The notes under the pieces were generated by a model that was not told where the DNA came from, ran no database searches, and was given only the letters and a program-made list of their open reading frames with translations. 60,277 nt of DNA from IMG/VR virus record IMGVR_UViG_3300042475_003740, positions 1-60,277 of that record; one strand, 5' to 3'. Origin of the DNA: a virus. Lineage: Duplodnaviria; Caudoviricetes. Both the position numbers and the translations under genes were made by a program. Positions 2,056-54,488 of the stretch are shown here, in pieces (the first letter of the stretch is position 1; every line of letters starts with the position of its first letter).

Positions 2056-2231
2056 GCCGCTGGATCGCCGATCGCCAGCCCACCGCCGAGGACGCCGACC
2101 TGCATGGCATGGTCCGGTGGGGCCCGCTGCGGCCCGGCCTGCTGATGCCTTGGATCGATGTGCGCCCCGGTGAGCAGTGGGCTCACACCACCGCCTGGCA
2201 ACCACCTGCGGAGGCACCGGAGCATGGATGA
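2052..2231 (+). CDS. hypothetical protein (59 aa, MSRWIADRQPTAEDADLHG...)
   Basis: Coupled ORF. Shares WIxxRxPTxEDADxxG with the C-terminus of 43758-44102. Confidence 0.55.
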   Translation: MSRWIADRQPTAEDADLHGMVRWGPLRPGLLMPWIDVRPGEQWAHTTAWQPPAEAPEHG

Positions 2232-15529: not shown

Positions 15530-18274
15530 CTATCCGTAGAGCAGCTGCAGCACCGGCCTGCCATCGGCTTCACCGGATGATTCAGTGGCGCTGCTGGTGA
15601 TCGTGTAGCAACCGGCGGCATCAGTGCGGCTGAAGTAGAACGACCCATCGCCGGCACCATTGAAGAGGGTTCCGATCTCCGGGTACGGCGGCGGATCTTC
15701 ATCCTCCTCGTCGGGGAACACCAGCGCATCGGCCTGGCACCAGGCCCACACCAGAGCGAAGTTGCCACCAGTCCACTCGATCGGAGTGTCAAAGATGAAC
15801 TCATTAAATGGTCCGCTATTTGAACCTGTGAATGTCTGCGAAGCCGACGAATACACCTCTGTGAAGGTTCCGCCGTTCGTGCCGCTACTATTCACTCCCA
15901 CCGCGTTGGTGGTGTTCTTGGCTCCGATCTTGTAATTAGGGAATGGCTGATTATCTGGTGCTCTGAACACACGGAACCGGATTCCGTAGATCGTTGCATT
16001 TTCAGCCCCATCACATGCCAGCGACATCTCAGCAGCGCTGTAGGTTGCTTGCATGATCGTGCGTCTATACAGACCGCTAATCGGGTTCACGTCGTAGACA
16101 TACTCTCCAATCGAATCAATGATGTAATCTTCACCCCACACTCCTTCGGAATCAATCTCACCGGGCACATCATCGCCAGCGCCAACTCGCACGCCACCGC
16201 CGATCTCCACCACTGGCAGGAAGGTTTCTACGCTGATCATCCCGCCGCATCGAACGCCACCACGCAGCGGAATGGCCTCATTCCAAGGCTGCACGATCAC
16301 CGAGGGGTTGATCGTCGCCCGTGGTGTTGTCGCCGTGGTGGTCGGCAGGCTGGCGAACAGTGCGGTCTGATCCGGCGCCAGCGGGTTGAAGCCGCCGGGA
16401 ATGTTGATGGCGTTGGCGGGCCTCGGGTTGGCATTCGTGGTCACGGCGACAGTGGCAGGCAGGCTGCTCAACCCCGGCGGCAGGGGAAACCATGCGCTGC
16501 CCACCGTGCCATCGATCGCACCCCAGAACAGCGTGTCGGTGCTGCAGACGATGCCATCGGCGCCGATCGTCCAGGTAGTGCCGTTGACGCGCAGGGCGGC
16601 GGTGCAGCCGTTGAGGCGCAGATACAGCAGGCTGAACGGAGCGGCCGGCGTGTCGAGCGGCGCCAGCTGCAGGCCGAACCCATTGCGATGGGCCAGTAGC
16701 AGGCGGTTTTCCAGGCGGGCGTAGCTCAGGGCCTGCTGCTCCGCGTTGGCTGCCACCACCGAGTAGGTGGGTGAGCCGCCGCCGCTGACCTGGATTCGGT
16801 CGTCGCTCACGTAGGGCGGCGAGAGCTCGATCGCCGCTTCTGCCGCCGGAGAGCCCAGTGCCCAGGTGGTCTTGGTGGTCTGTTCGGTCGTCGGCTCCCT
16901 GAGCAGCGCCTCGCGGTTGCGCTCCTGCTGGCCTGGTCGTCTCTGCAGACCGAACTCCCGCTCTGTTCTGATCCTGGTGTTGCTGCCGTAGGGCACCAGG
17001 CGGCTGGCGTAGCCGATCAGATCCTGCAGCGGCTCCTCTGCTTCGCGCAGGCGGGAGATGGCGTCAGCACCGAACGGAGTATTAATGTAGGCGGTGGCGG
17101 CAATCGTCTTGGTCAGGGTGATGCCGGATGCGCTGTTTTTGTCGTAGTTGACGACTCGCCAGGCGGTGGTCTGGTTGCCGCCGCGAAACTCTGCGTGAGG
17201 TCCGTTCTTGCCGCATGCGGCGGCGATGTCACCGCTTGGCGTCCATTCGGTGGTGGATTCGCGCACTACACGGCTGTAGTCTTCGCTGTTGCGATCAACG
17301 AAACCGCTGACATAGGAGAACGTTGTTTCGGTGTAGCGGGTGCCATTGAGCTGGTTTGTTGTTTCAGTTCTGCGCCGCACACGATCGCCCCCGTCGTATG
17401 ACGTTTCGGTGATGCTCACGTCGTTGTAGATAATGAACTCCTTCACCGTGTTTCCGCCTGCATCGGTGTAGGTGTGGATCGACTGCACACCGCCGCCGAT
17501 CACAACCTCCCGCTCCCAGTTGCGCCGCCTCACCTCGTCGTCGCTCAGGTTGCTGGCCGGTGCCACCAGCTTGTGGCTGATGTAGCGAGCGAACACCGCC
17601 TCGCCTGGCAGGTCGCCCACGCTGCTGGGGGTGAGGTCGATAATCTGTCCCCTTGTCACCAGCGGGCCGATGCCCACCTCCTGCTCGAGGGGGATGAACT
17701 CCACCTGCTCCGCGCCATTGATCCAGCAGCGGTATCGCTCCGATGCGGCGATCCGCCCCAGCTCCTCGACATAGCCAGCCGATAGGTCCCACTCATCCTC
17801 CAGTCGAGCGATCGTGAGCGGGATCGCTCCCGCGGCGGTAAGGCCCAGGGCGTCGAGGATCTTCTGCGTCACCCAGGCAGCTGTGATCGGCAGGGCTGCC
17901 ACGCGCCGCACCGACTCAGCCACGGCGGCGTTCTGCTCGGCCTCCTGCAGGTTGCTGGCTGGCGGCTTGCGGTTCTCGTAGAGGGCGAACAGACATCCCA
18001 CGCTGACGGTGGTGATGTTGCGCAGCGGATCAGCGGTGGAGCTCAGCACTCGCAGCCGCCGCGGCACCCGGGCGATCCATGCCTGCCCGTCGCTGTAGGC
18101 GAAGCTCACCGGCGTGCCGACCGTCGGCCGGTAGATGCCAGCGAGCGTCACGGTCCCCCTGGTGGTGATGACCCCGGCGGCGCCCTGGATGTAGCTGTCG
18201 GCGATGGTGGCGGGGCTGTCCGGGGCCAGCGGGCCGAGGTTGCACCATGCCCAGTGGCGGGTCTCAATGCTCAC
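15530..18274 (-). CDS. large tail tip / baseplate hub protein
   Basis: 914 aa, second gene after the tape measure. Confidence 0.7.
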   Translation of the reverse strand: MSIETRHWAWCNLGPLAPDSPATIADSYIQGAAGVITTRGTVTLAGIYRPTVGTPVSFAYSDGQAWIARVPRRLRVLSSTADPLRNITTVSVGCLFALYENRKPPASNLQEAEQNAAVAESVRRVAALPITAAWVTQKILDALGLTAAGAIPLTIARLEDEWDLSAGYVEELGRIAASERYRCWINGAEQVEFIPLEQEVGIGPLVTRGQIIDLTPSSVGDLPGEAVFARYISHKLVAPASNLSDDEVRRRNWEREVVIGGGVQSIHTYTDAGGNTVKEFIIYNDVSITETSYDGGDRVRRRTETTNQLNGTRYTETTFSYVSGFVDRNSEDYSRVVRESTTEWTPSGDIAAACGKNGPHAEFRGGNQTTAWRVVNYDKNSASGITLTKTIAATAYINTPFGADAISRLREAEEPLQDLIGYASRLVPYGSNTRIRTEREFGLQRRPGQQERNREALLREPTTEQTTKTTWALGSPAAEAAIELSPPYVSDDRIQVSGGGSPTYSVVAANAEQQALSYARLENRLLLAHRNGFGLQLAPLDTPAAPFSLLYLRLNGCTAALRVNGTTWTIGADGIVCSTDTLFWGAIDGTVGSAWFPLPPGLSSLPATVAVTTNANPRPANAINIPGGFNPLAPDQTALFASLPTTTATTPRATINPSVIVQPWNEAIPLRGGVRCGGMISVETFLPVVEIGGGVRVGAGDDVPGEIDSEGVWGEDYIIDSIGEYVYDVNPISGLYRRTIMQATYSAAEMSLACDGAENATIYGIRFRVFRAPDNQPFPNYKIGAKNTTNAVGVNSSGTNGGTFTEVYSSASQTFTGSNSGPFNEFIFDTPIEWTGGNFALVWAWCQADALVFPDEEDEDPPPYPEIGTLFNGAGDGSFYFSRTDAAGCYTITSSATESSGEADGRPVLQLLYG

Positions 18275-36946: not shown

Positions 36947-37183
36947 TCAGCCAGGCAGCCTCTCCAGCCGATCGTCCAGCACCAGGGACCGCTCACCGCT
37001 GGTGACCTTGGCGATGGTGACGACAAGGCTGATGAGGGCGCCCTCGCTGATCGCTGCGAATGCTTCGCGGGACTCAGGGCTGCGGCACTCGCAGCGGATC
37101 GACACTGGCCCAACCGTGATGGTGAACTCCTGCTCTGCGGTGCCGACGTTGCTGGCGCGGCCCACCAGGGTGATGCTGTCCAT
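36947..37183 (-). CDS. hypothetical protein (OB-fold-like)
   Basis: MDSITLVGR...; operator copy at 37217-37234. Confidence 0.5.
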   Translation of the reverse strand: MDSITLVGRASNVGTAEQEFTITVGPVSIRCECRSPESREAFAAISEGALISLVVTIAKVTSGERSLVLDDRLERLPG

Positions 37184-37209
37184 GGTGATGGGTGGTGGCT
37201 CCCGGCACT

Positions 37210-37713
37210 CTACCGCTGCGGTTGTGAAACCGCACCTGCTCCTTCCGAACACTGCGCCACCAGCCCGGCCTCCAGGTAGCGGTACTGCACGTTATGGCTC
37301 AGGGTATTGGTGCGGGTGTCGTAGGTGATCAGCACGTTCCGGCAGTGGCGCTCGGCCGTGGTGCTCCGCCGCACGTACTCCCCGCCGCTGCAGGTGATCA
37401 TCCCGGCATCGCTCACGGTCGGCCGCTGGGCCTCGAACCCGGAGAACCGCAGCAGCTCGGGCAGGCGGCCGGCCTGGTAGCCGCGGGCGTGCTCGTAGTT
37501 GGCGAACCGCTGCAGCCCGGCGCAGGTCGCCGCAGCAGCCAGCGGCGCCGGGGCGCTGCTGGAGGGCGGCAGCTCAACCGACAGGAGCTCAGCCGGGCGT
37601 GGCACGGGCTGGAACTGAAACTCCGCTGGCGGAGGGGGCTCGGGCGTCAGAGCTCGATGGCCGAGCAGTAGCAGCAGGGCTCCGCCGGCGGCCAGGAGGA
37701 TGGAATGGCGCAT
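37210..37713 (-). CDS. exported or membrane-anchored protein
   Basis: N-terminal hydrophobic signal ILLAAGGALLLLLG; four Cys. Confidence 0.6.
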   Translation of the reverse strand: MRHSILLAAGGALLLLLGHRALTPEPPPPAEFQFQPVPRPAELLSVELPPSSSAPAPLAAAATCAGLQRFANYEHARGYQAGRLPELLRFSGFEAQRPTVSDAGMITCSGGEYVRRSTTAERHCRNVLITYDTRTNTLSHNVQYRYLEAGLVAQCSEGAGAVSQPQR

Positions 37714-44169: not shown

Positions 44170-44459
44170 GTAACGCCTGTTACGCAAGCGTAACGGGGGG
44201 CGTAACACCCGAAACCCCGCGCCACCGCTACGTTCTTGGGTGCACTGTTACAGTAGTTACACCTAATTTCAGATATAGATAGAAGGGGGGGTAGTAAGAG
44301 CGCAACACCACAGCACAACACTTTCCCTTTCTCTTAGGGGCTATTCCCCCGCAAAACCGTAACGGGTAACGCATTCCACCAGATCGCAGTCAGGCACAGC
44401 GATCTGACCCGTTACCGGCGCGTTACAGCACCCTGTTTTCGTTACGCCTGAGGCGTTAC
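44170..44459. repeat. putative replication origin with 12 GTAAC/GTTAC iterons
   Basis: Non-coding, directly downstream of the primase-helicase; AT-rich core and a CAGATCGC/GCGATCTG inverted repeat. Confidence 0.7.
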
Positions 44460-47074
44460 AGGCCCCGGATTGGCAGCGAGACGGCCCGCGACACATCACC
44501 CAGCCCGCGGAACCGCACGACACCTGCCTTGGCGGCTCCAGGCAGCCGACTGAGCACCGTGCTCCAGCTATGGGCCCATGGCGTTTCAGCCAGCACCCGT
44601 CCGATCCCGGTGGCGGTATTGCTGATCAGCAGCCGATCGCCATCCACCCGAATCCCGATCCGGCCAAGGTGCGCAGCTGCCTGGGTGCTGCTGATCTCCA
44701 GTGATGTCGCGCCGGCGGCCGGATTCGCCAGCTCGACAAGCTCCCCGATCGTCCGCTGGTAGCCGTTGCCTCGATCCCCTTCAACGCGGATCTGATGCTG
44801 GAGTAGCACCTGAATGCAGCGCTGCTCATCAGGGGTTTCCGCAGCCTCGCGGTAGGGCTCCCAGTCGTTGCCGTCGATCAGGCTGTAGGCGTCGTCGATG
44901 GTGGCCGGGTGGCTGTTCATCAGTGACCAGGCGCCGGCCAGGAGGGTGCCGTACTGATCGCCCTGTCGCTGGCTGTCGAAGCGATCAGCAGCAGCCCGGC
45001 GGAACACCGCGACCGACTCGCGGATCACGGGGATCAGCTGCACGGAGCGAAGCAGGAGCCGATGGCCGGCCTCGGTGGTGATCGTCTCGGTCAGATCTCG
45101 GTCGAGGGCGTTCCAGTGAGCGATGCGGTCAGCCTTCGGCATGTGGCTGGGGTTCCGCAGGGTGAGCTGCGCAAAGCGGCTCTGATCGGCGCCTTGCTTG
45201 AGGGCGGTGCTGATCGAGCAGAGCAGGAACATTGAGCGGATGGTGAACCGCTGCGCGGCGCCGTCAGCCCCGCCCTTGCCGATCACCCCCCGGCCGGAGC
45301 TCGAGGCGACGCGAGCAAGCGCGAGGATGTTCTGAATCCGTTCGCGGTCGCTGCGCTCGTTTGATTCTGCCTCGTCGAAGACCACCGGCAGAGCATCAGC
45401 ACGGAGCTCTTGGCGGATGAACGCCTCGGTGGTGTTGCCCTCCGGCCAGATCGCCAGCGAGTCGAGGAGGGTGCCGAGGAATCGATCGAGGATGGCTGAT
45501 TTCCCGCTGCCAGCGGACGCGGTAAGCCAGGCGTGGGGCCGCCAGGTCAGTGCGCCGCAGATCGGCGCCAAGGCAGCCCATCCGCCAAGCAGCAGACCGG
45601 AGGCGGGTACCTCCCAGTGGAAGCGCGACGCGATGTCAAGGATCTCGGCGCCCTCCTGATCCGTGAGCGGCGACAGGTCGCTCGGCACATCGATCGAAGC
45701 GAGGCGCTGGTAGTTGAAGCGGGATGGCGGCGGGGTCATCACCGAGTAGGTGTCACCGTCGACGATCAGCCGATCACCGAGATGCAACACGGAGCGACCC
45801 TGATCCCACCAGGCACCGCGGCCACGGATCCGATCGGGGGAGTAGACGCCTACCGCGGCCTGCTGAGCGAAAAGAGAGGAGATAGCCGATTGCCAATCGG
45901 CGCCGGTTTTGCTGGGGTAGACGGCCTGCCAATACTGAATGAGGGCAATCCGCAGCAGGTTGGTGGACGTGTGCCCAGGGCCGGTGAGTCTCATGACCTG
46001 ACCGGTGTTGTGGGGCTGGTAGTAGTAGGAGTCCCCGTCGAACCCCAGGCAAGCAAACGGCGCCCCGGGCAGGCTGACGGGCGGATCGGCGGGCGGTGCG
46101 GCCGGCGGGTCAGGTTCGGGCTCTGGTGGTAGCGGCGGGAGCTCTACCAGGCCATCAGCCAGCACCTTGGCGGCCTGCTTCGGGGTCCAGCCGAACGCTG
46201 CGGCATCAGCGAGGTCGAACTTCGGCGGCGCCTCGGCCGGCGGCTTGAAGATCGAGACGGTGCAGCCAAGCTGCAGGAGCTTCGGGCCGAGCTTGGCCAT
46301 GCAGTTCCGACCGGGGTCGTCGTTGTCCGGCCAGAGCACCACGGTGCGGCCGGCGAGGGGCGACCAGTCGGTGTGGCGGACGCCGCCGGTGCCACCGCAC
46401 CAGGCAGTGACCACGTGGCCGGGGAAGAGATCGGCGCCGGCATCAGCGACCTTCTCCCCCTCGGTGATGAGCACCGGGTCGTCCGTGCGCTCCGCCAGAT
46501 CAGGGAGGCGGTAGAGGGGTCTGGGTGCAGGCCACTCGGAGGTGAAGGGATCGCTCTTGCTGGGGAAGTGCCAGCCACCGTCGAGCCAGGTGCGATGGAT
46601 GAACAGCTTGCCCTTCGGGGTCTCGATCCGCTGAATCCAGAACAGCTGCCGCCCATCGGTGTCGCGGTAGCACCACTGCGCCACGGCGCGGCCAAGGTCT
46701 GGCGCGGCAGCATCAGCCGGTGGGGTATCGGGTATGCGGTGGGGCTTGCCGGCGGGCTTGACCCGGGGCGGAGCTGCATCAGATGGCAGGCCGAGCTGCT
46801 GCTCCACCCTCCGCAGCGCCTGCTTCAGATCCCAGCCGGTGCAGCGCATGAGCAGGTCGAGGCCGGACATGGCGCCGCCCTGGCGGTCCTTGCCGCCGCA
46901 CTGGTTGCAGTAGCAGCCGCCGGGGCCGTCGTCGCGGTCCCACCGGTAGCGATCGGTGCCACCACAGGCCGGGCAGGGTTGGTGCTGATCAGTGAGCTGC
47001 TCTGCCGTCAGGCCAGCAAGGGACTGCAGCAGCTCTGGCCAGCGGCCGGCTGCCTGCTCAAGAGTTGTGGCCAT
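44456..47074 (-). CDS. primase-helicase (Zn ribbon + TOPRIM + P-loop helicase)
   Basis: HQPCPACGGTDRY...CNQCG, ITEGEK, WPDND, ASAGSGKS and VVFDEAE. Confidence 0.9.
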   Translation of the reverse strand: MATTLEQAAGRWPELLQSLAGLTAEQLTDQHQPCPACGGTDRYRWDRDDGPGGCYCNQCGGKDRQGGAMSGLDLLMRCTGWDLKQALRRVEQQLGLPSDAAPPRVKPAGKPHRIPDTPPADAAAPDLGRAVAQWCYRDTDGRQLFWIQRIETPKGKLFIHRTWLDGGWHFPSKSDPFTSEWPAPRPLYRLPDLAERTDDPVLITEGEKVADAGADLFPGHVVTAWCGGTGGVRHTDWSPLAGRTVVLWPDNDDPGRNCMAKLGPKLLQLGCTVSIFKPPAEAPPKFDLADAAAFGWTPKQAAKVLADGLVELPPLPPEPEPDPPAAPPADPPVSLPGAPFACLGFDGDSYYYQPHNTGQVMRLTGPGHTSTNLLRIALIQYWQAVYPSKTGADWQSAISSLFAQQAAVGVYSPDRIRGRGAWWDQGRSVLHLGDRLIVDGDTYSVMTPPPSRFNYQRLASIDVPSDLSPLTDQEGAEILDIASRFHWEVPASGLLLGGWAALAPICGALTWRPHAWLTASAGSGKSAILDRFLGTLLDSLAIWPEGNTTEAFIRQELRADALPVVFDEAESNERSDRERIQNILALARVASSSGRGVIGKGGADGAAQRFTIRSMFLLCSISTALKQGADQSRFAQLTLRNPSHMPKADRIAHWNALDRDLTETITTEAGHRLLLRSVQLIPVIRESVAVFRRAAADRFDSQRQGDQYGTLLAGAWSLMNSHPATIDDAYSLIDGNDWEPYREAAETPDEQRCIQVLLQHQIRVEGDRGNGYQRTIGELVELANPAAGATSLEISSTQAAAHLGRIGIRVDGDRLLISNTATGIGRVLAETPWAHSWSTVLSRLPGAAKAGVVRFRGLGDVSRAVSLPIRGL

Positions 47075-47078
47075 GCCG

Positions 47079-47267
47079 TCAGGCCGTGGCCGCTGCGGTG
47101 CTGCGTGTGGGCCCCTGCCGCTCCATATCGCGGCGGATCAGCTGCCGGACATAGGCGGCCCTGCTGCAGCCCTCGTAGCTGGCCTGGGCGTCGAGGTGGC
47201 TGACGTGCTCCAGGGGCAGCTCAAGGGTGATGGTGGTCTTGCCGTCAGGTGTGGGCCAGCTGGGCAT
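47079..47267 (-). CDS. ribbon-helix-helix (CopG-like) regulator
   Basis: TITLELP...LDAQA...SRAAYVRQLI. Confidence 0.75.
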   Translation of the reverse strand: MPSWPTPDGKTTITLELPLEHVSHLDAQASYEGCSRAAYVRQLIRRDMERQGPTRSTAAATA

Positions 47268-47544
47268 GGTGCGGTGGCGGTTCAGGTTCGCAGTGTAGCG
47301 GTGCAGATGCGGATGCGAAACGCTATGATTCGCTGGCCACCACCACCCCCCTGCTCCATGCCGATGCCAGCCACTGCCCGGACCAGGTGGTGGGTGCCCT
47401 GCCCCTGGAAGGCGGGGAGTGGCCTCTCGGCTGATCACGGTCCCGTTGAGGACTGCCGCTGGCTCCAGGCTCGTGCTGTGCCGTCAAGGGCGGCAGTAAG
47501 CCGGGGCGGTGCGGGGTGGCAGCTATGAAGCCACCACACCACCC

Positions 47545-47811
47545 ATGACCCCCACCCTCCCCACCCCAGCCGAGGAGCTGGAGATCCGCCAGTACTCAGA
47601 AGAAGCCTGGCGGTTTACCTGGGCGAACTGCACCGAGCTGTCGCCGAAGCAGGCATTCATCGAAGGGCACTACCTGGCGTTCTGGTGCGGAATCATGGCG
47701 TGCCGCAAGACGCGGCTGGAGGTGAAGGACAGGATCGAGCGGCTGGAAACAGCCCTGAGCCTGTCGCTGCTGGCCCTGGTGGCGGCGATCGCATGGGGGC
47801 TGGCGCGATGA
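47545..47811 (+). CDS. small protein with a C-terminal TM helix
   Basis: CCA-rich leader; LSLLALVAAIAWGL. Confidence 0.55.
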   Translation: MTPTLPTPAEELEIRQYSEEAWRFTWANCTELSPKQAFIEGHYLAFWCGIMACRKTRLEVKDRIERLETALSLSLLALVAAIAWGLAR

Positions 47812-47854
47812 CCCCCACCCTCCGCCCGTACCAGGCACAAGGCGTTGCGCTCAC

Positions 47855-47975
47855 GACAAAGGGGGCCGAAGCCCCCTCTGCTGACAAGCCATGCCCAGGC
47901 GTGCCCAACCTAACCAATCTAAGCGGTACCGGGCCCCGTCCCGCCAGGCCTAACCACGACCGCCAGCAGGCGACC
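47855..47975 (-). ncRNA. candidate guide RNA: 15 phased GGY-NN pentamers with its own -10 box and terminator
   Basis: TATACT at 47986-47981; pentamers at 47955-47881; hairpin AGGGGGC-TTCG-GCCCCCT followed by TT. Confidence 0.7.
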
Positions 47976-48001
47976 CATTCAGTATATCGCACCACAAGAC
48001 A

Positions 48002-49387
48002 TTGACCACAATCCTTCGCCCCCGCCAAGTTCAAGCCTTGGCTGATCTGCGACTGGCCTATGCGCAAGGCGCCAGGGCACCAATTCTGGTGGCGCCTACC
48101 GGATTCGGCAAAACCGCAACGGCCGCTGAAATCGTCCGCCAAGCCGTCGCTAAGGGCCGAAAGGTGTGGTTCCTGGCTCACCTGCGGGAGATCCTTGACG
48201 ACACGTCCGCCCGGTTGACTGCTGCGGGCATCAGCCACGGGCAGATCCGTGCGGGCCGATCGTCGGACTACTCAGCGGCGGTGCAGATTGTTGCCGTTCA
48301 AACTGCTGTACGTCGCCCGCGGCTGCCGAGGCCGGATCTGGTGATCATCGATGAATGCCATCTGGCGGTAGCCACCAGCTACCAGAAGGTGATGGCCGCC
48401 ACCGGCTGGCCGTTGCTGCTGGGTCTGACCGGCACTCCGCAACGGCTGGATGGCCGGGGCCTGGGGGAGGTGTTCGACCGGCTGGTGCTGACCTGCGGCA
48501 GCGCGGAACTGATCGAGGAGGGCCTGCTGGCACCGGTGCGGCTATTCGAGCCACCGGGGCTGGACCTGTCGGGCCTGCGCAGCCGTGCGGGAGAGTTTGA
48601 TCAGGGCCAGGCGGGCGACTTGCTGTCGAAGCCGGCGGTGGTTGGTGATGCGCTGAGCCACTGGAAGCGGTTGTGCATCGGCCGGCGCGGCGTGGCGTTC
48701 TGCACCACCGTTGCGCATGCCCATGCGGTGGCCGAGCAGTGGCAGCAGGCCGGATTCCGCGCGATGGCGGTGCATGGCGGCAGCGATGACGCGGAGCGTC
48801 GCGAGGCGATCGTTGGGCTGCGGGCCGGGCGCCTGGATCTTGTTGCTTGCGCTCAGCTCTGGATCGCCGGTGTTGACGTGCCGGAGATCGACGCGGTGAT
48901 CTGGCTGCGGCCGACGCAGAGTCTGACGGCATGGCTGCAGGGGATCGGGCGTGGGCTGCGGATTGCTCCGGGGAAGCGCGACCTGATCATCCTGGATCAC
49001 GTCGGCAACCGCGCCAGGCTGGGTCACCCGCTGGAGGTGCATGACTGGACGCTGGAGGGCCGGCAAAAGCGACAGCGCGAGGCGACGCTATCGGTGAAGA
49101 TTTGCCCCTCCTGTTTCAGCAGCGTGGCGAGCCGGTTGCCCGAGTGCCCGGAATGCGGCCATCGCTTCGTGGCGGAACGCCGTGCGCTTGAGCATGTGGA
49201 TGGTGAGCTTGTGGAAGTGGATCCGCTGCAGCTGCAGCGCGAGCAGCGCCGCGAGCAGGGCGAGGCCACCACCCTGGAGGCCCTGATCGATGTGGGCAAG
49301 CGTCGGGGGATGAAGAACCCCCGCGGCTGGGCCCGGCATGTCCTGGCTGCCCGGCAGGCGAAGGGTCACTGGGCGGGGGTGGCGTGA
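48002..49387 (+). CDS. SF2 DEAD/DEAH-like helicase with a C-terminal Zn finger
   Basis: LRPRQ, APTGFGKT, IIDECH, LTGTP, QGIGRGLR and CPSC...CPECG. Confidence 0.92.
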   Translation: MTTILRPRQVQALADLRLAYAQGARAPILVAPTGFGKTATAAEIVRQAVAKGRKVWFLAHLREILDDTSARLTAAGISHGQIRAGRSSDYSAAVQIVAVQTAVRRPRLPRPDLVIIDECHLAVATSYQKVMAATGWPLLLGLTGTPQRLDGRGLGEVFDRLVLTCGSAELIEEGLLAPVRLFEPPGLDLSGLRSRAGEFDQGQAGDLLSKPAVVGDALSHWKRLCIGRRGVAFCTTVAHAHAVAEQWQQAGFRAMAVHGGSDDAERREAIVGLRAGRLDLVACAQLWIAGVDVPEIDAVIWLRPTQSLTAWLQGIGRGLRIAPGKRDLIILDHVGNRARLGHPLEVHDWTLEGRQKRQREATLSVKICPSCFSSVASRLPECPECGHRFVAERRALEHVDGELVEVDPLQLQREQRREQGEATTLEALIDVGKRRGMKNPRGWARHVLAARQAKGHWAGVA

Positions 49388-50127
49388 CTCTCCGCATGAT
49401 CGACACCTTCAGCGGCATCGGCGGCTTCTCGCTGGCGGCACGCTGGCTAGGCGAGATCGAGACGGTTCAGTTCGTGGAGCGCGAGCCGTACTGCCAGCGG
49501 ATCCTTCGTAAGCACTGGCCCACTGTCCCTATTCACGATGACATCTGCACCTATGAACCCGAGCCCGGTTCAGCCGACATTGTTTGCGGTGGATTTCCCT
49601 GCCAGGACTTATCGATCGCAGGGCAACGTCGTGGCCTTGGACATGACACCCGTTCCGGCCTGTTCTATCAGCTGCTCCGAATCGTTCGCGTGGTACGACC
49701 ACAGTTCGTCGTCATGGAAAACGTGGCGGCAATACTTGACGGGCACCTGGGAGCCGTGGTCGGAGCGCTGGCCGCGAATGGGTATGACTGTGAATGGGCA
49801 TGCGTATCAGCTGCCGATCTTGGAGCTTGGCACGTACGTGATCGGTGGTGGGCAGTTGCCTACCCCGAGTGCTACCGAATACAAGGGCACCTGCCGGACG
49901 CGATTTCGTGGCAGCGAGGACTCACGGATGTCACGTTTAGTGGAAGGGTTGAGAGTCTGCTCTACGGACCCCCAAGTGGCTCACCCCGATTCCGTGGAGA
50001 TCCTGATGGGGTTCCCGACTGGATGGACCGCCTGAAGGCCTTGGGCAATGCGGTGGTGCCGCAGGTGGCGATGGTGCCGCTGGCCAGGGTGCTGGAGCTG
50101 GACCGGCAGTTGGGGGCGGGGCCATGA
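49384..50127 (+). CDS. DNA cytosine-5 methyltransferase, alpha chain (lacks motif IX)
   Basis: FSGIGG, GGFPCQ, ENV, HVRDR and RLKALGNAVVP motifs. Confidence 0.9.
   Translation: MTLRMIDTFSGIGGFSLAARWLGEIETVQFVEREPYCQRILRKHWPTVPIHDDICTYEPEPGSADIVCGGFPCQDLSIAGQRRGLGHDTRSGLFYQLLRIVRVVRPQFVVMENVAAILDGHLGAVVGALAANGYDCEWACVSAADLGAWHVRDRWWAVAYPECYRIQGHLPDAISWQRGLTDVTFSGRVESLLYGPPSGSPRFRGDPDGVPDWMDRLKALGNAVVPQVAMVPLARVLELDRQLGAGP
49538..50035 (+). CDS. overprinted methyltransferase beta chain carrying motif IX
   Basis: Alternative frame nested in the MTase; LPTPSATEYKG and HPDSVEILMGFPTGWT. Confidence 0.7.
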   Translation: MTSAPMNPSPVQPTLFAVDFPARTYRSQGNVVALDMTPVPACSISCSESFAWYDHSSSSWKTWRQYLTGTWEPWSERWPRMGMTVNGHAYQLPILELGTYVIGGGQLPTPSATEYKGTCRTRFRGSEDSRMSRLVEGLRVCSTDPQVAHPDSVEILMGFPTGWTA

Positions 50128-50185: not shown

Positions 50186-50266
50186 ATGAACGACTGGTCT
50201 GTCACCGTTTTCTGCTGCACCGTCGTTATCTGCCTAACCCTCATCGCAATTTTTGGCAATGGCTAG
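50186..50266 (+). CDS. 26 aa hydrophobic peptide (MNDWSVTVFCCTVVICLTLIAIFGNG)
   Basis: AGGAG Shine-Dalgarno upstream; stop overlaps the start of the RAMP-like gene. Confidence 0.4.
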   Translation: MNDWSVTVFCCTVVICLTLIAIFGNG

Positions 50267-50888
50267 CCCATCTACGACCATGCAGGTGGTCATCACACCG
50301 CCAAACTTCCAACGCCTTGCCATCAACATCAAGGGCACCACTCCGCTGGTGATCAACCGCTTCAGCGCGAAAGCCATGCAGATGATGCGCAAGGCCCAGG
50401 AAACCGGTAGTGCTTCAAGGTCGCGCAAGACACGTGAAGCTAAGGATTTTGATGCGTTGTTCGAGGGCGCCAAGCACATCAGCGACGACGGATGGGAGGG
50501 CATCCATGCCGCCGCGTTTCGCAACGGTGCCATCAGTGCATGTCGCGCCTGCGGGTTCAAGATGACCCACGCCAAGCTGGCCTTCACGGTTGAGCAGGAT
50601 GGCTTCGACCGTGTAGACGGAGCCCCGCTGGTCAGGCTGACAGAGGGCGAGGCTGAGCAGTGGGTAGCTCCTACCAGAAATGCCACCGGCGTGATCGATC
50701 TACGGTGCCGGCCGATGTATCGAGAATGGGGTGCAACACTCAGGATTCGCTATGACGCCGGCATGCTCACCGGCGATGATGTCGTGAACCTGGTGGCGCG
50801 GGTCGGGCTGCAGGTTGGCATCGGCGAAGGTCGGCCGGACTCGAAGATGAGCGCCGGGCTTGGCTTTGGCTTGTTTGAGATCGTGTGA
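50259..50888 (+). CDS. stand-alone RAMP/Cas7-like RNA-binding protein
   Basis: IKGTTPLVI (first strand), GIHAAAFRNGAI (equivalent to IPGSSLKG) and the C-terminal Gly loop VGIGEGRPDSKMSAGLGFGLFEI. Confidence 0.7.
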   Translation: MASPSTTMQVVITPPNFQRLAINIKGTTPLVINRFSAKAMQMMRKAQETGSASRSRKTREAKDFDALFEGAKHISDDGWEGIHAAAFRNGAISACRACGFKMTHAKLAFTVEQDGFDRVDGAPLVRLTEGEAEQWVAPTRNATGVIDLRCRPMYREWGATLRIRYDAGMLTGDDVVNLVARVGLQVGIGEGRPDSKMSAGLGFGLFEIV

Positions 50889-50900
50889 TGGAGATAATCA

Positions 50901-51076
50901 GGCACGGCTGGCTAGGTAAGGCGGCGCACGGGGACGCGAGGTGCGCCATCGCAGGCAAGGCTAGGCGAGGCACTGCCGGACCTGGTGAGGCCAGCCATCG
51001 CTGGCACGTCAAGGCGCGGATTGGCCGGGTAAGGCCATGCAGCGTCGGCAGACTAAGGGGACGGAAGCGTCCCCTT
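50901..51076 (+). ncRNA. candidate guide RNA array of phased GGY-NN pentamers (three 44-49 nt units) plus a terminal hairpin
   Basis: 27 pentamers (17 begin GGY) punctuated by four 4-mers; GCCATCGCWGGCA recurs at 50945 and 50994; hairpin AAGGGGACG-GAAG-CGTCCCCTT. Confidence 0.75.
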
Positions 51077-51097
51077 CCCACTTAACCCCAAATCACC

Positions 51098-51616
51098 ATG
51101 GCCAATTATCGATTCACCAACGATTACAAAGAGTTCGATGATGAGGCGATTGACGCACAGACCGCCGGCGAGGAGCTGAAGCGCATTCATGCCGAGCGTG
51201 GCAAGTTGACCGCCAAAGATGTTGTCGATGAATCGCGGCCTGATGATGCGCCTTTGCATCCTGCATTTGAATGGAGGGATCAGGTTGCCGCCGAGGAGTA
51301 CCGGCAGATTCAGGCGTTGAACCTGATCAAAGTTGTAGAGGTGATCCAGCCCGCCGCCGACGAGCAAAAGCCGGAGCCTGCTTACGTGAAGGTGGCCAGC
51401 AAGCCGGCGCTCTACGAGCCGCCTGCCAAGGTGGTGAAGACGCCACAGTTATTCGAGTCGGCCTTTCTGCAAGCATGCGAGCGCCTCAGGGCCGCAGAGC
51501 GAGCGATGGAGCAGCTTCAGGAGATTGCCAAGCGTGAGCGGCCTGGCGCGTTCAGGCAGTGCGGCAAGGCCGTCTACGTGCTGCGCCAGCTGCAAACGAT
51601 GCTGCCGAGCCGGTGA
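51098..51616 (+). CDS. conserved phage protein, putative partner of the RAMP-like gene
   Basis: GEELKRI...LTAKDVVDESRP..APLHPAFEWRD..AAEEYR motif; directly after the array. Confidence 0.7.
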   Translation: MANYRFTNDYKEFDDEAIDAQTAGEELKRIHAERGKLTAKDVVDESRPDDAPLHPAFEWRDQVAAEEYRQIQALNLIKVVEVIQPAADEQKPEPAYVKVASKPALYEPPAKVVKTPQLFESAFLQACERLRAAERAMEQLQEIAKRERPGAFRQCGKAVYVLRQLQTMLPSR

Positions 51617-53214: not shown

Positions 53215-54488
53215 CGCTGCACCACGATCGCCCAGCCGCTGCCGGGGCCTTCGATCATCCACCGGCGGCCGAAGTTCTTGCGGCTGTAGCGGCAGAATCT
53301 GGCGGGCTTTGGCAGCGTGGCACCCGTCACCAGGTCAGCCTCTCCAAGGGGATCGTGAACAATGACGTGGGTAGCGTCGTAGCCGACAACGATCAGCCAG
53401 TGGCCATCACCAGCCGGCGCGTCAACCGGCCCGCGGTGCAGGTAGCCGCAGGGCACCGGAAAGCCGGCGTCGATGCTGCGCTCCAGTGTGGAGAAGTCGG
53501 CCCGTTTCGTGAAGTCCGCTTGCACCTCATACGACCCCAACGCCTGCACCTGGGCAATCGCGCTGGTGGTATCGCCGAACTGCCTGACCCTGGCCAGGTA
53601 CTGGTCGTCGCCGTTGGGTCCGTGAAGGATGCCGGGCCTGAGGCACGCCAACAGCATGGCGCAGGAGCTGCTGAAGCACATCCGCCGCGCCTGGTCGGTG
53701 GCGCTGTCGAGCTGCGCGAAGTACGGCACCGGCAGGGGGTTACGGCTCCCTGCCGCTGGCGGCACCACCAGCACCGGCTGTTGCACCTGCATGCCCATGG
53801 GGATCGCCGCCACGGCCCGCTGGTAGCAGGCCTCTCGATCGGCCAGGCCGTTGGCCGGATCGCGGCCGTTCACCCTGGCCGACACCTTTCGCACCGTGGC
53901 CCCCGCATCCACCAGGGCATTGATGCCGTTCTGCTGCCACCACAGCCCCGCGGATGTGAACGGATACCTGGCTGCGACGTAGGCGGCACCGGTCATCACG
54001 CCGGGATCTCCCACGGCATCAGCCAGCCGCTGGTAGTTGAAGCGGCCGGTGATCTGCAGCACCCCGGCCCCCTTGAACCGCGGCCCATCACCACGCTGGG
54101 TGTTGCCCAGGTCCGCCCGACCGTTGTAGGCGTCACCGGAAGCGAGCTCCAGCATCCACCGGAGTCCACCGCTTTCGTGCGCCACCTGCGCGAGGAAGTG
54201 CCGGATGCGGGCGGTGGTGGTGATGTCGAACCGCCGGAGGCAAGCGTTCAGATCGACCAGCTGCTCAGCCGTGGGCGCCCGACCGAACACGGCGGTAGCC
54301 TGGGCCATGCTCACCATGTCGTCGGTGCCCGGCTTCGGTGGCACTGCTGAGATCCAGATGCTGCCCAGCTCGCCATCGTTCGCCAGCGCCCCGGGCGGCA
54401 GGTGGGCCTCCACCGCCTCCCAGAACGCCCGGTGATGGGAGAGCTGCAGATCGCTGTGTCGTACGCAGTCCAGTAGGCGGCGAGTCAT
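53211..54488 (-). CDS. endolysin: GH19 + C39-like peptidase domains
   Basis: HFLAQVAHES, FKGAGVLQITGRFNY and NGLADR (GH19); PYFAQ..CFSSSCAM..GHWLIVVGY..HDP (C39). Confidence 0.9.
   Translation of the reverse strand: MTRRLLDCVRHSDLQLSHHRAFWEAVEAHLPPGALANDGELGSIWISAVPPKPGTDDMVSMAQATAVFGRAPTAEQLVDLNACLRRFDITTTARIRHFLAQVAHESGGLRWMLELASGDAYNGRADLGNTQRGDGPRFKGAGVLQITGRFNYQRLADAVGDPGVMTGAAYVAARYPFTSAGLWWQQNGINALVDAGATVRKVSARVNGRDPANGLADREACYQRAVAAIPMGMQVQQPVLVVPPAAGSRNPLPVPYFAQLDSATDQARRMCFSSSCAMLLACLRPGILHGPNGDDQYLARVRQFGDTTSAIAQVQALGSYEVQADFTKRADFSTLERSIDAGFPVPCGYLHRGPVDAPAGDGHWLIVVGYDATHVIVHDPLGEADLVTGATLPKPARFCRYSRKNFGRRWMIEGPGSGWAIVVQR

Follow-up and report, generated by a model that had tools for sequence, protein, structure and literature searches.

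The locus and its carrier

The stretch of DNA analysed here, in the following called the window, is a complete virus record of 60,277 bp with a GC content of 65.5%. It encodes an integrase, a major head protein, a tape measure protein, a portal protein, the large terminase, a sigma factor and several methyltransferases, hence it looks like the genome of a temperate tailed phage. The same phage sequence (47400-51200) was found in lake-water metagenomes from several studies; in six of the 24 listed sequencing runs, half or more of the sampled words are present, and none of these 24 is an RNA run. Variant contigs occurred only around 49330-50060, i.e. at the 3' end of the helicase gene and in the methyltransferase gene, and the array region was free of differences in all four runs examined.

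The locus of interest is a gap of 190 bp in the replication module. Upstream of the gap lie the primase gene (44456-47074, minus strand), a small HTH-like gene (47079-47438, minus strand) and a small ORF (47509-47811, plus strand). Downstream of it follow an SF2 helicase gene (48002..49387, plus strand; ResIII 2.8e-20, Helicase_C 1.1e-10, phrog_16 8.9e-86) and a C5 methyltransferase gene (49384-50127). The gap itself holds an array of GGY-NN pentamers on the minus strand. Further downstream, the plus strand carries a gene for a small RAMP protein, another array of this type, here called the first array, and a conserved neighbour gene.

A phased GGY-NN array on the minus strand

The guide region of the array (47881..47955, minus strand) comprises 15 in-phase pentamers, read from 47955 to 47881. 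Ten of the 15 start with GGY upon direct reading, and a repeat caller reports 14 units, also with ten GGY starts. The two-base spacers form the string TA CT GG GG CC AC TT TT TA TG AC TG AT TT AG, which is A or T at 18 of its 30 positions. All these details had been given in a preliminary description of the locus and turned out to be exact on re-reading. Five of the 15 units are without GGY, and the longest perfect GGYNN run is three units long (units 1-3 and units 9-11).

While the minus-strand array reaches a phased count of ten GGY starts per 15 units, the runner-up on both strands of the window attains only 7/15 (37139-37213, plus strand), and the region of the first array gives 6 in the same count. 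When the whole window was shuffled 300 times with its dinucleotides preserved, the maximal phased count was 5 in 22, 6 in 230, 7 in 45 and 8 in three cases, and a count of 10 was found in none (0/300). Hence, the array is beyond chance. A low-complexity run that arose accidentally in GC-rich DNA could be suspected, as shuffles of this GC-rich window alone produce phased counts of up to 8; however, this explanation is close to refuted by the complete lack of shuffles at 10 and by the same grammar that follows Vipr genes at 72 of 106 related loci (see below). The preliminary description had named a permutation test as the check for chance GGY runs and had seen in the common grammar of two arrays an argument against chance, which is borne out by the shuffles as well as by the related loci. 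The array is genuine and far from random, and, judged by grammar and context, it represents a vrRNA gene as found in a known type of system.

Two other runs were noticed in the window, one at 2106-2140 (plus strand; seven units, six with GGY) within a coding frame and one at 1674-1625 (minus strand; ten units, just six with GGY). Both look like chance.

Promoter-like site, leader and 3' tail

Ahead of the array, a putative sigma-70-like promoter of the form TGGTCA-16 nt-TATACT is situated at 48008..47981 on the minus strand, which matches the consensus at 9 of 12 positions and is the sole promoter-like site that a consensus scan finds in 47400-48200 (shuffle mean 0.1). Its -35 hexamer overlaps the first helicase codons on the opposite strand, and its -10 hexamer TATACT at 47986-47981 is present as it had been described before. 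Judged from the position of the -10 hexamer, transcription would start near 47974 and produce a predicted 5' leader of approximately 19 nt (47956..47974, minus strand). One more in-phase GGY unit, GGTCG at 47975-47971, occurs in the leader region.

On the other side of the array, a presumed terminator forms the 3' tail (47856..47880, minus strand), which is composed of CAGA, the previously noted hairpin AGGGGGC-TTCG-GCCCCCT (47877-47860) and TTGT, so that the array end reads GTCAG-CAG ahead of the hairpin. The hairpin is present in the minimum-energy fold of the predicted RNA. It is not flagged by a terminator scan of 47400-48200, because its T run is short and the T-run rule of the scan is not satisfied. 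Deduced from the promoter-like site and the hairpin, the predicted RNA would be approximately 119 nt long. Its fold as a whole is not unusual, since 13 of 200 shuffles fold as well or better (z -1.72); such an unremarkable fold is consistent with a repeat tract that is coated by protein and ends in a hairpin, but proves nothing.

As claimed in the preliminary description, the end of the minus-strand array resembles that of the first array: GTCAG precedes the hairpin here, GGCAG (51047-51051) followed by ACTAA and the hairpin GGGGACG-GAAG-CGTCCCC (51057-51074) is found there. Its sequence GTCAGCAGA-GGGGGC..GCCCCC-TTT is also similar to the final tails of the related loci L064-L083, which read GGCAGCAGAAU-GGGGGC..GCCCCC-UCAUUCC and share with it CAGCAGA plus the GGGGGC hairpin. 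A covariance model made from 11 tails of the L064-L083 type gave 7.8 bits for the minus-strand array, which is not significant (E 0.9, rank 7/30), and its match to the first array is not significant either (E 7.3). Moreover, the CAGCAGA-hairpin tail pattern occurred at nine unrelated phage loci of the viral collection, none of them with an array (0/9), hence the search for this pattern revealed no second copy of the element. Given the model E value of 0.9 and these nine array-less loci, the tail is compatible with membership among the vrRNAs but is not diagnostic for it. The top match of the tail model in the window, at 16251-16286 (plus strand; 18.2 bits, E 8.6e-4), has both tail flanks without a hairpin and is probably due to chance, because the region looks coding.

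A Vipr homologue with arrays in many relatives

The presumed protein partner of the predicted RNA is encoded at 50253..50888 (plus strand; the start may also be ATG 50259 or 50280). The product of 211 amino acids is a small Cas7-like RAMP protein that belongs to PHROG 4652, annotated as 'unknown function'. A profile of 22 homologues matched the 'SUSP1 Vipr protein' (PDB 36pp_D) with an E value of 3.7e-6 over query residues 22-197, and the Vipr of the related locus L010 matched the window in tblastn with an E value of 9e-7. The gene product is homologous to Vipr and has a Cas7-like fold; its gene is situated 2.3 kb from the minus-strand array. A 26-codon hydrophobic ORF (50187-50267, plus strand; MNDWSVTVFCCTVVICLTLIAIFGNG) lies just 5' of this gene and overlaps its start.

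VIPR systems consist, according to the preprint that introduced them, of a Vipr RAMP protein and vrRNAs of approximately 100 nt, each with 9-16 YNNGG repeats and a 3' tail (bioRxiv 10.64898/2026.04.26.720920). Seven types of VIPR have been published. The combination of a GGY-NN array with a RAMP-like protein therefore leads to this known system. The preliminary description had assumed a separate RNA of about 120 nt that acts in trans with a RAMP-like protein; this idea is now supported by analogy, since VIPR works in such a way and the protein is a Vipr homologue with the appropriate fold. In the accompanying structural preprint, one Vipr protomer is reported to bind per repeat, with GGY contacted by H17, D177, R138, W178 and R179, and with W178 stacking on G2 (10.64898/2026.04.26.720927). 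The SUSP1 G-loop residues D177, W178 and R179 align to E192, G193 and R194 of our protein, i.e. Asp is replaced by Glu and Trp by Gly, while Arg is kept. The whole G-loop (residues 189-195) is invariantly GIGEGRP in the Vipr clade of this phage. Hence, GGY recognition may differ in detail in the GIGEGRP clade, because Gly occupies the position of W178 and Glu that of D177.

Directly 3' of the vipr gene lies the first array (50889..51097, plus strand), which is degenerate and ends with the GGCAG and hairpin mentioned above; the repeat caller finds eight units with six GGY and seven units with five GGY. It is followed by the conserved neighbour gene at 51098..51616 (plus strand; phrog_15946, 2.3e-16), a candidate accessory gene. 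Its homologues, with the motif PLHPAFEW.D, come after the array at 42 loci from many clades, and the phrog_15946 gene might be an accessory (vap) gene of this VIPR type. For its product, neither a Pfam match nor a significant PDB match was obtained. PADLOC gave no match for five proteins, a protein atlas search returned only unnamed viral clusters, and neither an Rfam family (gathering thresholds; CRISPR families included) nor a tRNA was detected in the window.

Relatives of the 211-aa Vipr homologue were collected from 64 viral loci and 42 loci of genome collections. In nearly all of them a GGY-NN array follows directly 3' on the coding strand, often as a (GGC-NN)n tract that is nearly perfect and 100-450 nt long. 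For counting this link, we considered loci with a tblastn E value of at most 1e-20 and at least 200 nt of downstream sequence (n=106), while shorter flanks or reversed matches were dropped. A phased count of at least 9/15 was present within 800 nt downstream of the Vipr homologue at 72 of the 106 loci, and one of at least 8 at 79 of them. The arrays of the relatives have 9-14 GGY units among 15, and the first array of the window is a degenerate member of the same set. Very long near-perfect (GGC-NN)n tracts were observed after vipr at L055 (3620-3960), L085 (3696-3897), L105 (3265-3392) and L047 (2502-2830), all on the plus strand; they are interrupted every 8-11 units by ACCGCA or ATCGCA, which amounts to a one-base phase shift, and may represent multi-guide arrays with a short punctuation mark in place of a long tail. 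The Vipr homologues from the genome collections are mostly located on MAG contigs, and since these are scattered over many phyla, no host can be named.

Probable insertion of the array at the helicase start

In related phages, the start codon of the helicase gene overlaps the stop codon of the preceding gene and the junction reads (A/G)TGACCC.ACCCTCCGCCCC.... The window shows this arrangement at 47808 (ATGA), where it continues for 42 bp only. This short segment (47808..47849, plus strand; MTPTLRPYQAQGVA) is the leftover 5' end of a different helicase allele, with an ATG that overlaps the stop codon of the ORF 47509-47811. With an identity of 96% over 23 nt, it matches the helicase starts of L030-L032 and L043-L044, which belong to a more distant helicase group; its identity to the start of L022 is 84% over 37 nt. 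The real helicase start is the TTG at 48002 (MTTILRPRQVQAL). Immediately ahead of it, and hence wedged between the remnant and the intact helicase gene, sits a cassette of approximately 152 bp that comprises the hairpin, the array, the leader and the -10 hexamer.

From the ATG of the remnant, a putative open frame of 65 codons crosses the cassette (47808..48005, plus strand; same frame as an ORF at 47685-48005). Since the TGA of the bridging frame overlaps the helicase TTG (TTGA), the series of stop-start overlaps remains unbroken. Stub and bridging frame (47808-48005, plus strand) look like a recombination scar that preserved translational coupling.

Among 45 helicase-anchored related loci, a minus-strand phased count above 6 was never found (0/45), and no arrays were seen in 16 inspected upstream regions of related helicases. 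Near Vipr genes, an opposite-strand phased count of at least 8 occurred at 1 of 106 loci. Hence, the cassette looks like a recent insertion or recombination joint and not like an ancestral feature. A blastn search with 47400-48300 against the phage collection gave no match. Contigs without any difference over the cassette were found in four lake-water runs from four studies (X3, 47582-48709; X5, 47560-48327; X4, 47400-48000; X2, 47827-48707), therefore the cassette is not an assembly error.

The position between the primase and helicase genes also calls for another explanation, namely that the element acts in cis, either as an antisense RNA or as a DNA element such as a replication origin or a control site of the helicase gene. 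It is indeed placed within the replication module directly before the helicase, and it is antisense to a plus-strand message that crosses the cassette, which is bridged there by the 65-codon frame. However, the inspected related phages lack such an element before the same helicase, none of the 45 helicase loci has a minus-strand count above 6, and the fold of the whole RNA is as unremarkable as stated above. To our knowledge, a GGY period of 5 nt has no role in origins, which also counts against this explanation. We regard a cis-acting element as highly improbable.

Predicted target in an HNH gene of a second Vipr subfamily

According to the first VIPR preprint, the NN pairs read double-stranded DNA with one base skipped per pair; either strand can be read and no PAM is required. 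Natural targets were accepted there at an NN match of at least 80% (10.64898/2026.04.26.720920). The gapped search that had been proposed in the preliminary description, in which one free base follows each NN pair, is identical to this published rule. We scanned both strands with the NN pairs joined by one wildcard base, and the mismatch-tolerant scanning covered approximately 1.3 Mb in all. In a set of 823 kb, the best match of 23/30 (77%, below the 80% cut-off of the authors of the preprint) was obtained at homologous sites in L010 and L038. None of 100 shuffled guides scored 23 on this set. On an enlarged set of 1.05 Mb per strand, 23 was reached by none of 400 base-shuffled and none of 400 unit-order-shuffled guides, the maximum of which was 22, hence the match is non-random. 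Skips of 0, 2 and 4 bases gave 19, 20 and 19 on the enlarged set, and a skip of 3 gave the trivial self-match only. It must be mentioned that G-rich wrong-phase guides also score 23-24/30, so that a target score is meaningful only against composition-matched nulls.

The matched gene codes for an HNH-like protein (Pfam HNH E 0.0016, which is below the cut-off for assignment) and is situated upstream of, and overlapping with, the gene of a second Vipr subfamily. This subfamily has the G-loop GIGDWRP and matches the SUSP1 Vipr with an E value of 1.8e-28. The skipped bases coincide with the third codon positions of ...LQVHHKNAGPPNY..., the region of the HNH catalytic histidine. The same site is the best match at all 47 of 47 further HNH loci, with 19-23/30, and at all 47 a Vipr of the second subfamily comes directly after the HNH gene. 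Over 29 unique sites, the mean major-allele frequency is 0.924 at the read positions versus 0.677 at the skipped ones. The match is unevenly distributed along the guide: units 1-12 match 21/24 (87.5%, a post hoc trim), and units 13-15 match 2/6. Of the five units whose GGY is broken, four (units 4, 7, 8 and 12) have NN pairs that still match the target. No exact match to units 1-12 or to units 3-12 was found in the viral collection. The window itself contains no self-target at 80% or more, with a best self score of 18/30, and no HNH homologue was found in it (best E 0.5). The helicase of L010 is 77% identical to that of the window, which makes a carrier of the L010 type a plausible competitor.

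With 76 well-formed guides of relatives, the one-base skip had no advantage over a skip of 0 bases, a skip of 2 bases or shuffles in the sequences scanned (at least 0.85 in 0, 2, 5 and 2 of the 76), an outcome that is uninformative about the code. In the reverse direction, 72 guides of the rival subfamily reached at least 0.8 against the window in 10 cases versus 33 of 360 shuffled guides, i.e. without excess. Taken together, the HNH gene may be the real target of the minus-strand guide, an assignment that we hold for possible but somewhat short of probable.

The loci with the HNH-vipr arrangement are L010, L038 and L110-L156. At those whose downstream region was inspected, among them L010 (2083-3085, 3300-3800) and L038, the second-subfamily Vipr is followed by short vrRNAs, each of which ends in a conserved CACGGAG-hairpin-CCCTG tail. 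One vrRNA tail of L010 contains CTGATGAG, a hammerhead core word.

The location of the best match within the operon of a rival raises the question whose Vipr would use the RNA. It could be a decoy or hijacker, loaded by the second-subfamily Vipr of the rival and turned on the rival's own HNH-vipr operon. Such a strategy has a precedent in the solo vrRNAs, which, as far as described in the respective preprint, use the Vipr of another element; solo vrRNAs of satellites redirect the SUSP1 Vipr (10.64898/2026.10.15.759431). However, the CACGGAG-hairpin-CCCTG tail of the rival type is absent near the array, and its sole match in the window lies far off at approximately 6011 (reverse-complement position 54267). 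Loading by the rival Vipr is therefore mildly disfavoured. Furthermore, the phage has a Vipr of its own. Hijacking of the rival protein thus appears improbable to us.

Proposed function of the predicted RNA

The region 47856-48008 on the minus strand is very likely of vrRNA origin, and it probably belongs to the phage's own VIPR system as a stand-alone vrRNA gene. We also consider it slightly more likely than not that the predicted RNA is expressed and used by the Vipr of this phage. The promoter at 48008-47981 would drive an RNA of approximately 119 nt with a short leader, the 15 GGY-NN pentamers and a terminating GC hairpin. In analogy to the solved SUSP1 complex, each pentamer would be bound by one protomer of the Vipr encoded at 50253-50888, with the GGY hidden and the NN exposed. 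If the one-base-skip code also applies in the Vipr clade of the window, the exposed pairs would read double-stranded DNA in the pattern NNxNNxNN and silence transcription at such sites. As the most likely target, we propose the catalytic-motif codons (QVHHKNAGPPNY) of the HNH gene that forms an operon with the different Vipr subfamily in related lake phages, and the RNA would represent a weapon against the VIPR locus of a rival phage.

The main alternative to a functional guide gene is that the element was brought in by recombination as a vrRNA, lost its function and is now eroding, with the NN match to the HNH gene as the fossil of a former target. Several observations are consistent with decay. 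GGY is kept in only 10 of 15 units, and the first array is degenerate, too (6/8 and 5/7 versus the 9-14/15 of the relatives). The best target match amounts to 77% with 2/6 in the last three units, and the cassette is conserved in no relative, neither at the 45 helicase loci nor at the 106 Vipr loci. Perturbation of the GGY motif is reported to abolish silencing in the first VIPR preprint, which, however, also describes internal degeneracy as frequent in real vrRNAs (10.64898/2026.04.26.720920). Moreover, the promoter-like site and the hairpin are intact, the sequence is identical in four other metagenomes, and the NN pairs of the broken units still fit the target. Therefore, we consider a decaying remnant rather unlikely and prefer the stand-alone vrRNA gene.

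The vrRNA gene could even be seen as part of a more general scheme, in which the 152-bp unit of promoter, guide and hairpin represents a self-contained, exchangeable vrRNA cassette that recombined into a conserved helicase start, left the 42-bp stub and the open bridging frame behind, and arms one Vipr subfamily against the HNH partner of another. This scheme is speculative and, taken as a whole, we would not expect it to hold. If true, such cassettes would be a possible route by which phages pass VIPR guides around, there would be a cross-type conflict of VIPR versus VIPR in lake phages, and guides would tolerate that one third of their GGY anchors is broken.

VIPR was described only in 2026, mainly from the coliphage SUSP1 and a Pseudomonas prophage, and the locus extends this picture. 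New details are that the vrRNA gene is dispersed and on the opposite strand in a phage that has not lost vipr, that the carrier is an uncultured temperate lake phage, that the target is predicted in an accessory nuclease gene which accompanies another Vipr subfamily, and that a clear insertion scar gives a hint to the movement of guide genes. The locus would also be a cheap test case for the tolerance of guides to GGY degeneracy, and one for the validity of the one-base-skip code in a distant Vipr clade without the stacking tryptophan in its G-loop.

Comparison with known systems

In TRAP attenuation, the RNA carries 11 (G/U)AG triplets with spacers of 2-3 nt and winds around a protein ring. 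The predicted RNA resembles it in that a triplet plus a two-base spacer gives a period of 5 nt with one subunit per triplet. In contrast, the fold of the protein is unrelated, and in TRAP the triplets are the signal, whereas the spacers are without information. A TRAP-like ring-binding RNA had been taken into consideration and was dropped when the Vipr homology appeared.

Class 1 CRISPR systems, in which a Cas7/Csm3 filament forms on the crRNA, are distinguished from the locus by several features. CRISPR repeats or other cas genes are lacking here, the guide is non-contiguous, and each step amounts to 5 nt, of which three bases are hidden, versus 6 nt with one flipped base in CRISPR.

The closest correspondence exists to the characterised VIPR examples, for which the preprints give phage SUSP1 and a Pseudomonas fulva prophage (10.64898/2026.04.26.720920, 10.64898/2026.04.26.720927); a further preprint reports that 99 VIPR-like clusters with a period of 5 nt were recovered (10.64898/2026.10.21.760802). 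Like in these examples, the locus has GGY/NN pentamers whose number is within the range of 9-16, a predicted RNA of approximately 100-120 nt with a structured 3' end, and a Cas7-like protein nearby. It is also phage-borne, has vrRNA genes both beside and apart from vipr, and its predicted target is wobble-aligned and belongs to a rival mobile element. In SUSP1, one vrRNA is said to be situated upstream and three downstream of the genes (10.64898/2026.04.26.720920). Compared to SUSP1, the Vipr homologue is distant (profile E 3.7e-6) and has Gly at the position of W178, the tail of the array is a plain hairpin instead of a pseudoknot tail of approximately 40 nt, GGY is present in only 67% of the units, and the main arrays of the Vipr clade of the window are long, with the 100-450 nt seen in the relatives. 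The published calling rules are at least four YNNGG units (10.64898/2026.04.26.720920) or a run of at least four units above a conformity threshold of unstated value (third preprint, 10.64898/2026.10.15.759431). The minus-strand array, with its longest perfect run of three units, has a cumulative conformity of 10 of 14-15 units.

Solo vrRNAs have been described from satellites and from phages without vipr, where they are often aimed at rival vipr genes or vrRNAs and at wobble-aligned active-site codons (10.64898/2026.10.15.759431). The predicted gene of our phage shares with those of the F5 satellites and the VIPR-null SUSP1-like phages that it is a single vrRNA gene with putative signals of its own, away from the vipr operon, and that its predicted target lies in a rival VIPR operon at wobble-aligned active-site codons. 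It differs from them in its carrier, which is an uncultured lake phage and not a phage of Enterobacteriaceae, and in its predicted target, which is the HNH neighbour gene of another Vipr subfamily and not a vipr gene or a vrRNA. Finally, since the phage retains its own vipr, the minus-strand RNA should be regarded as dispersed rather than as truly orphan.
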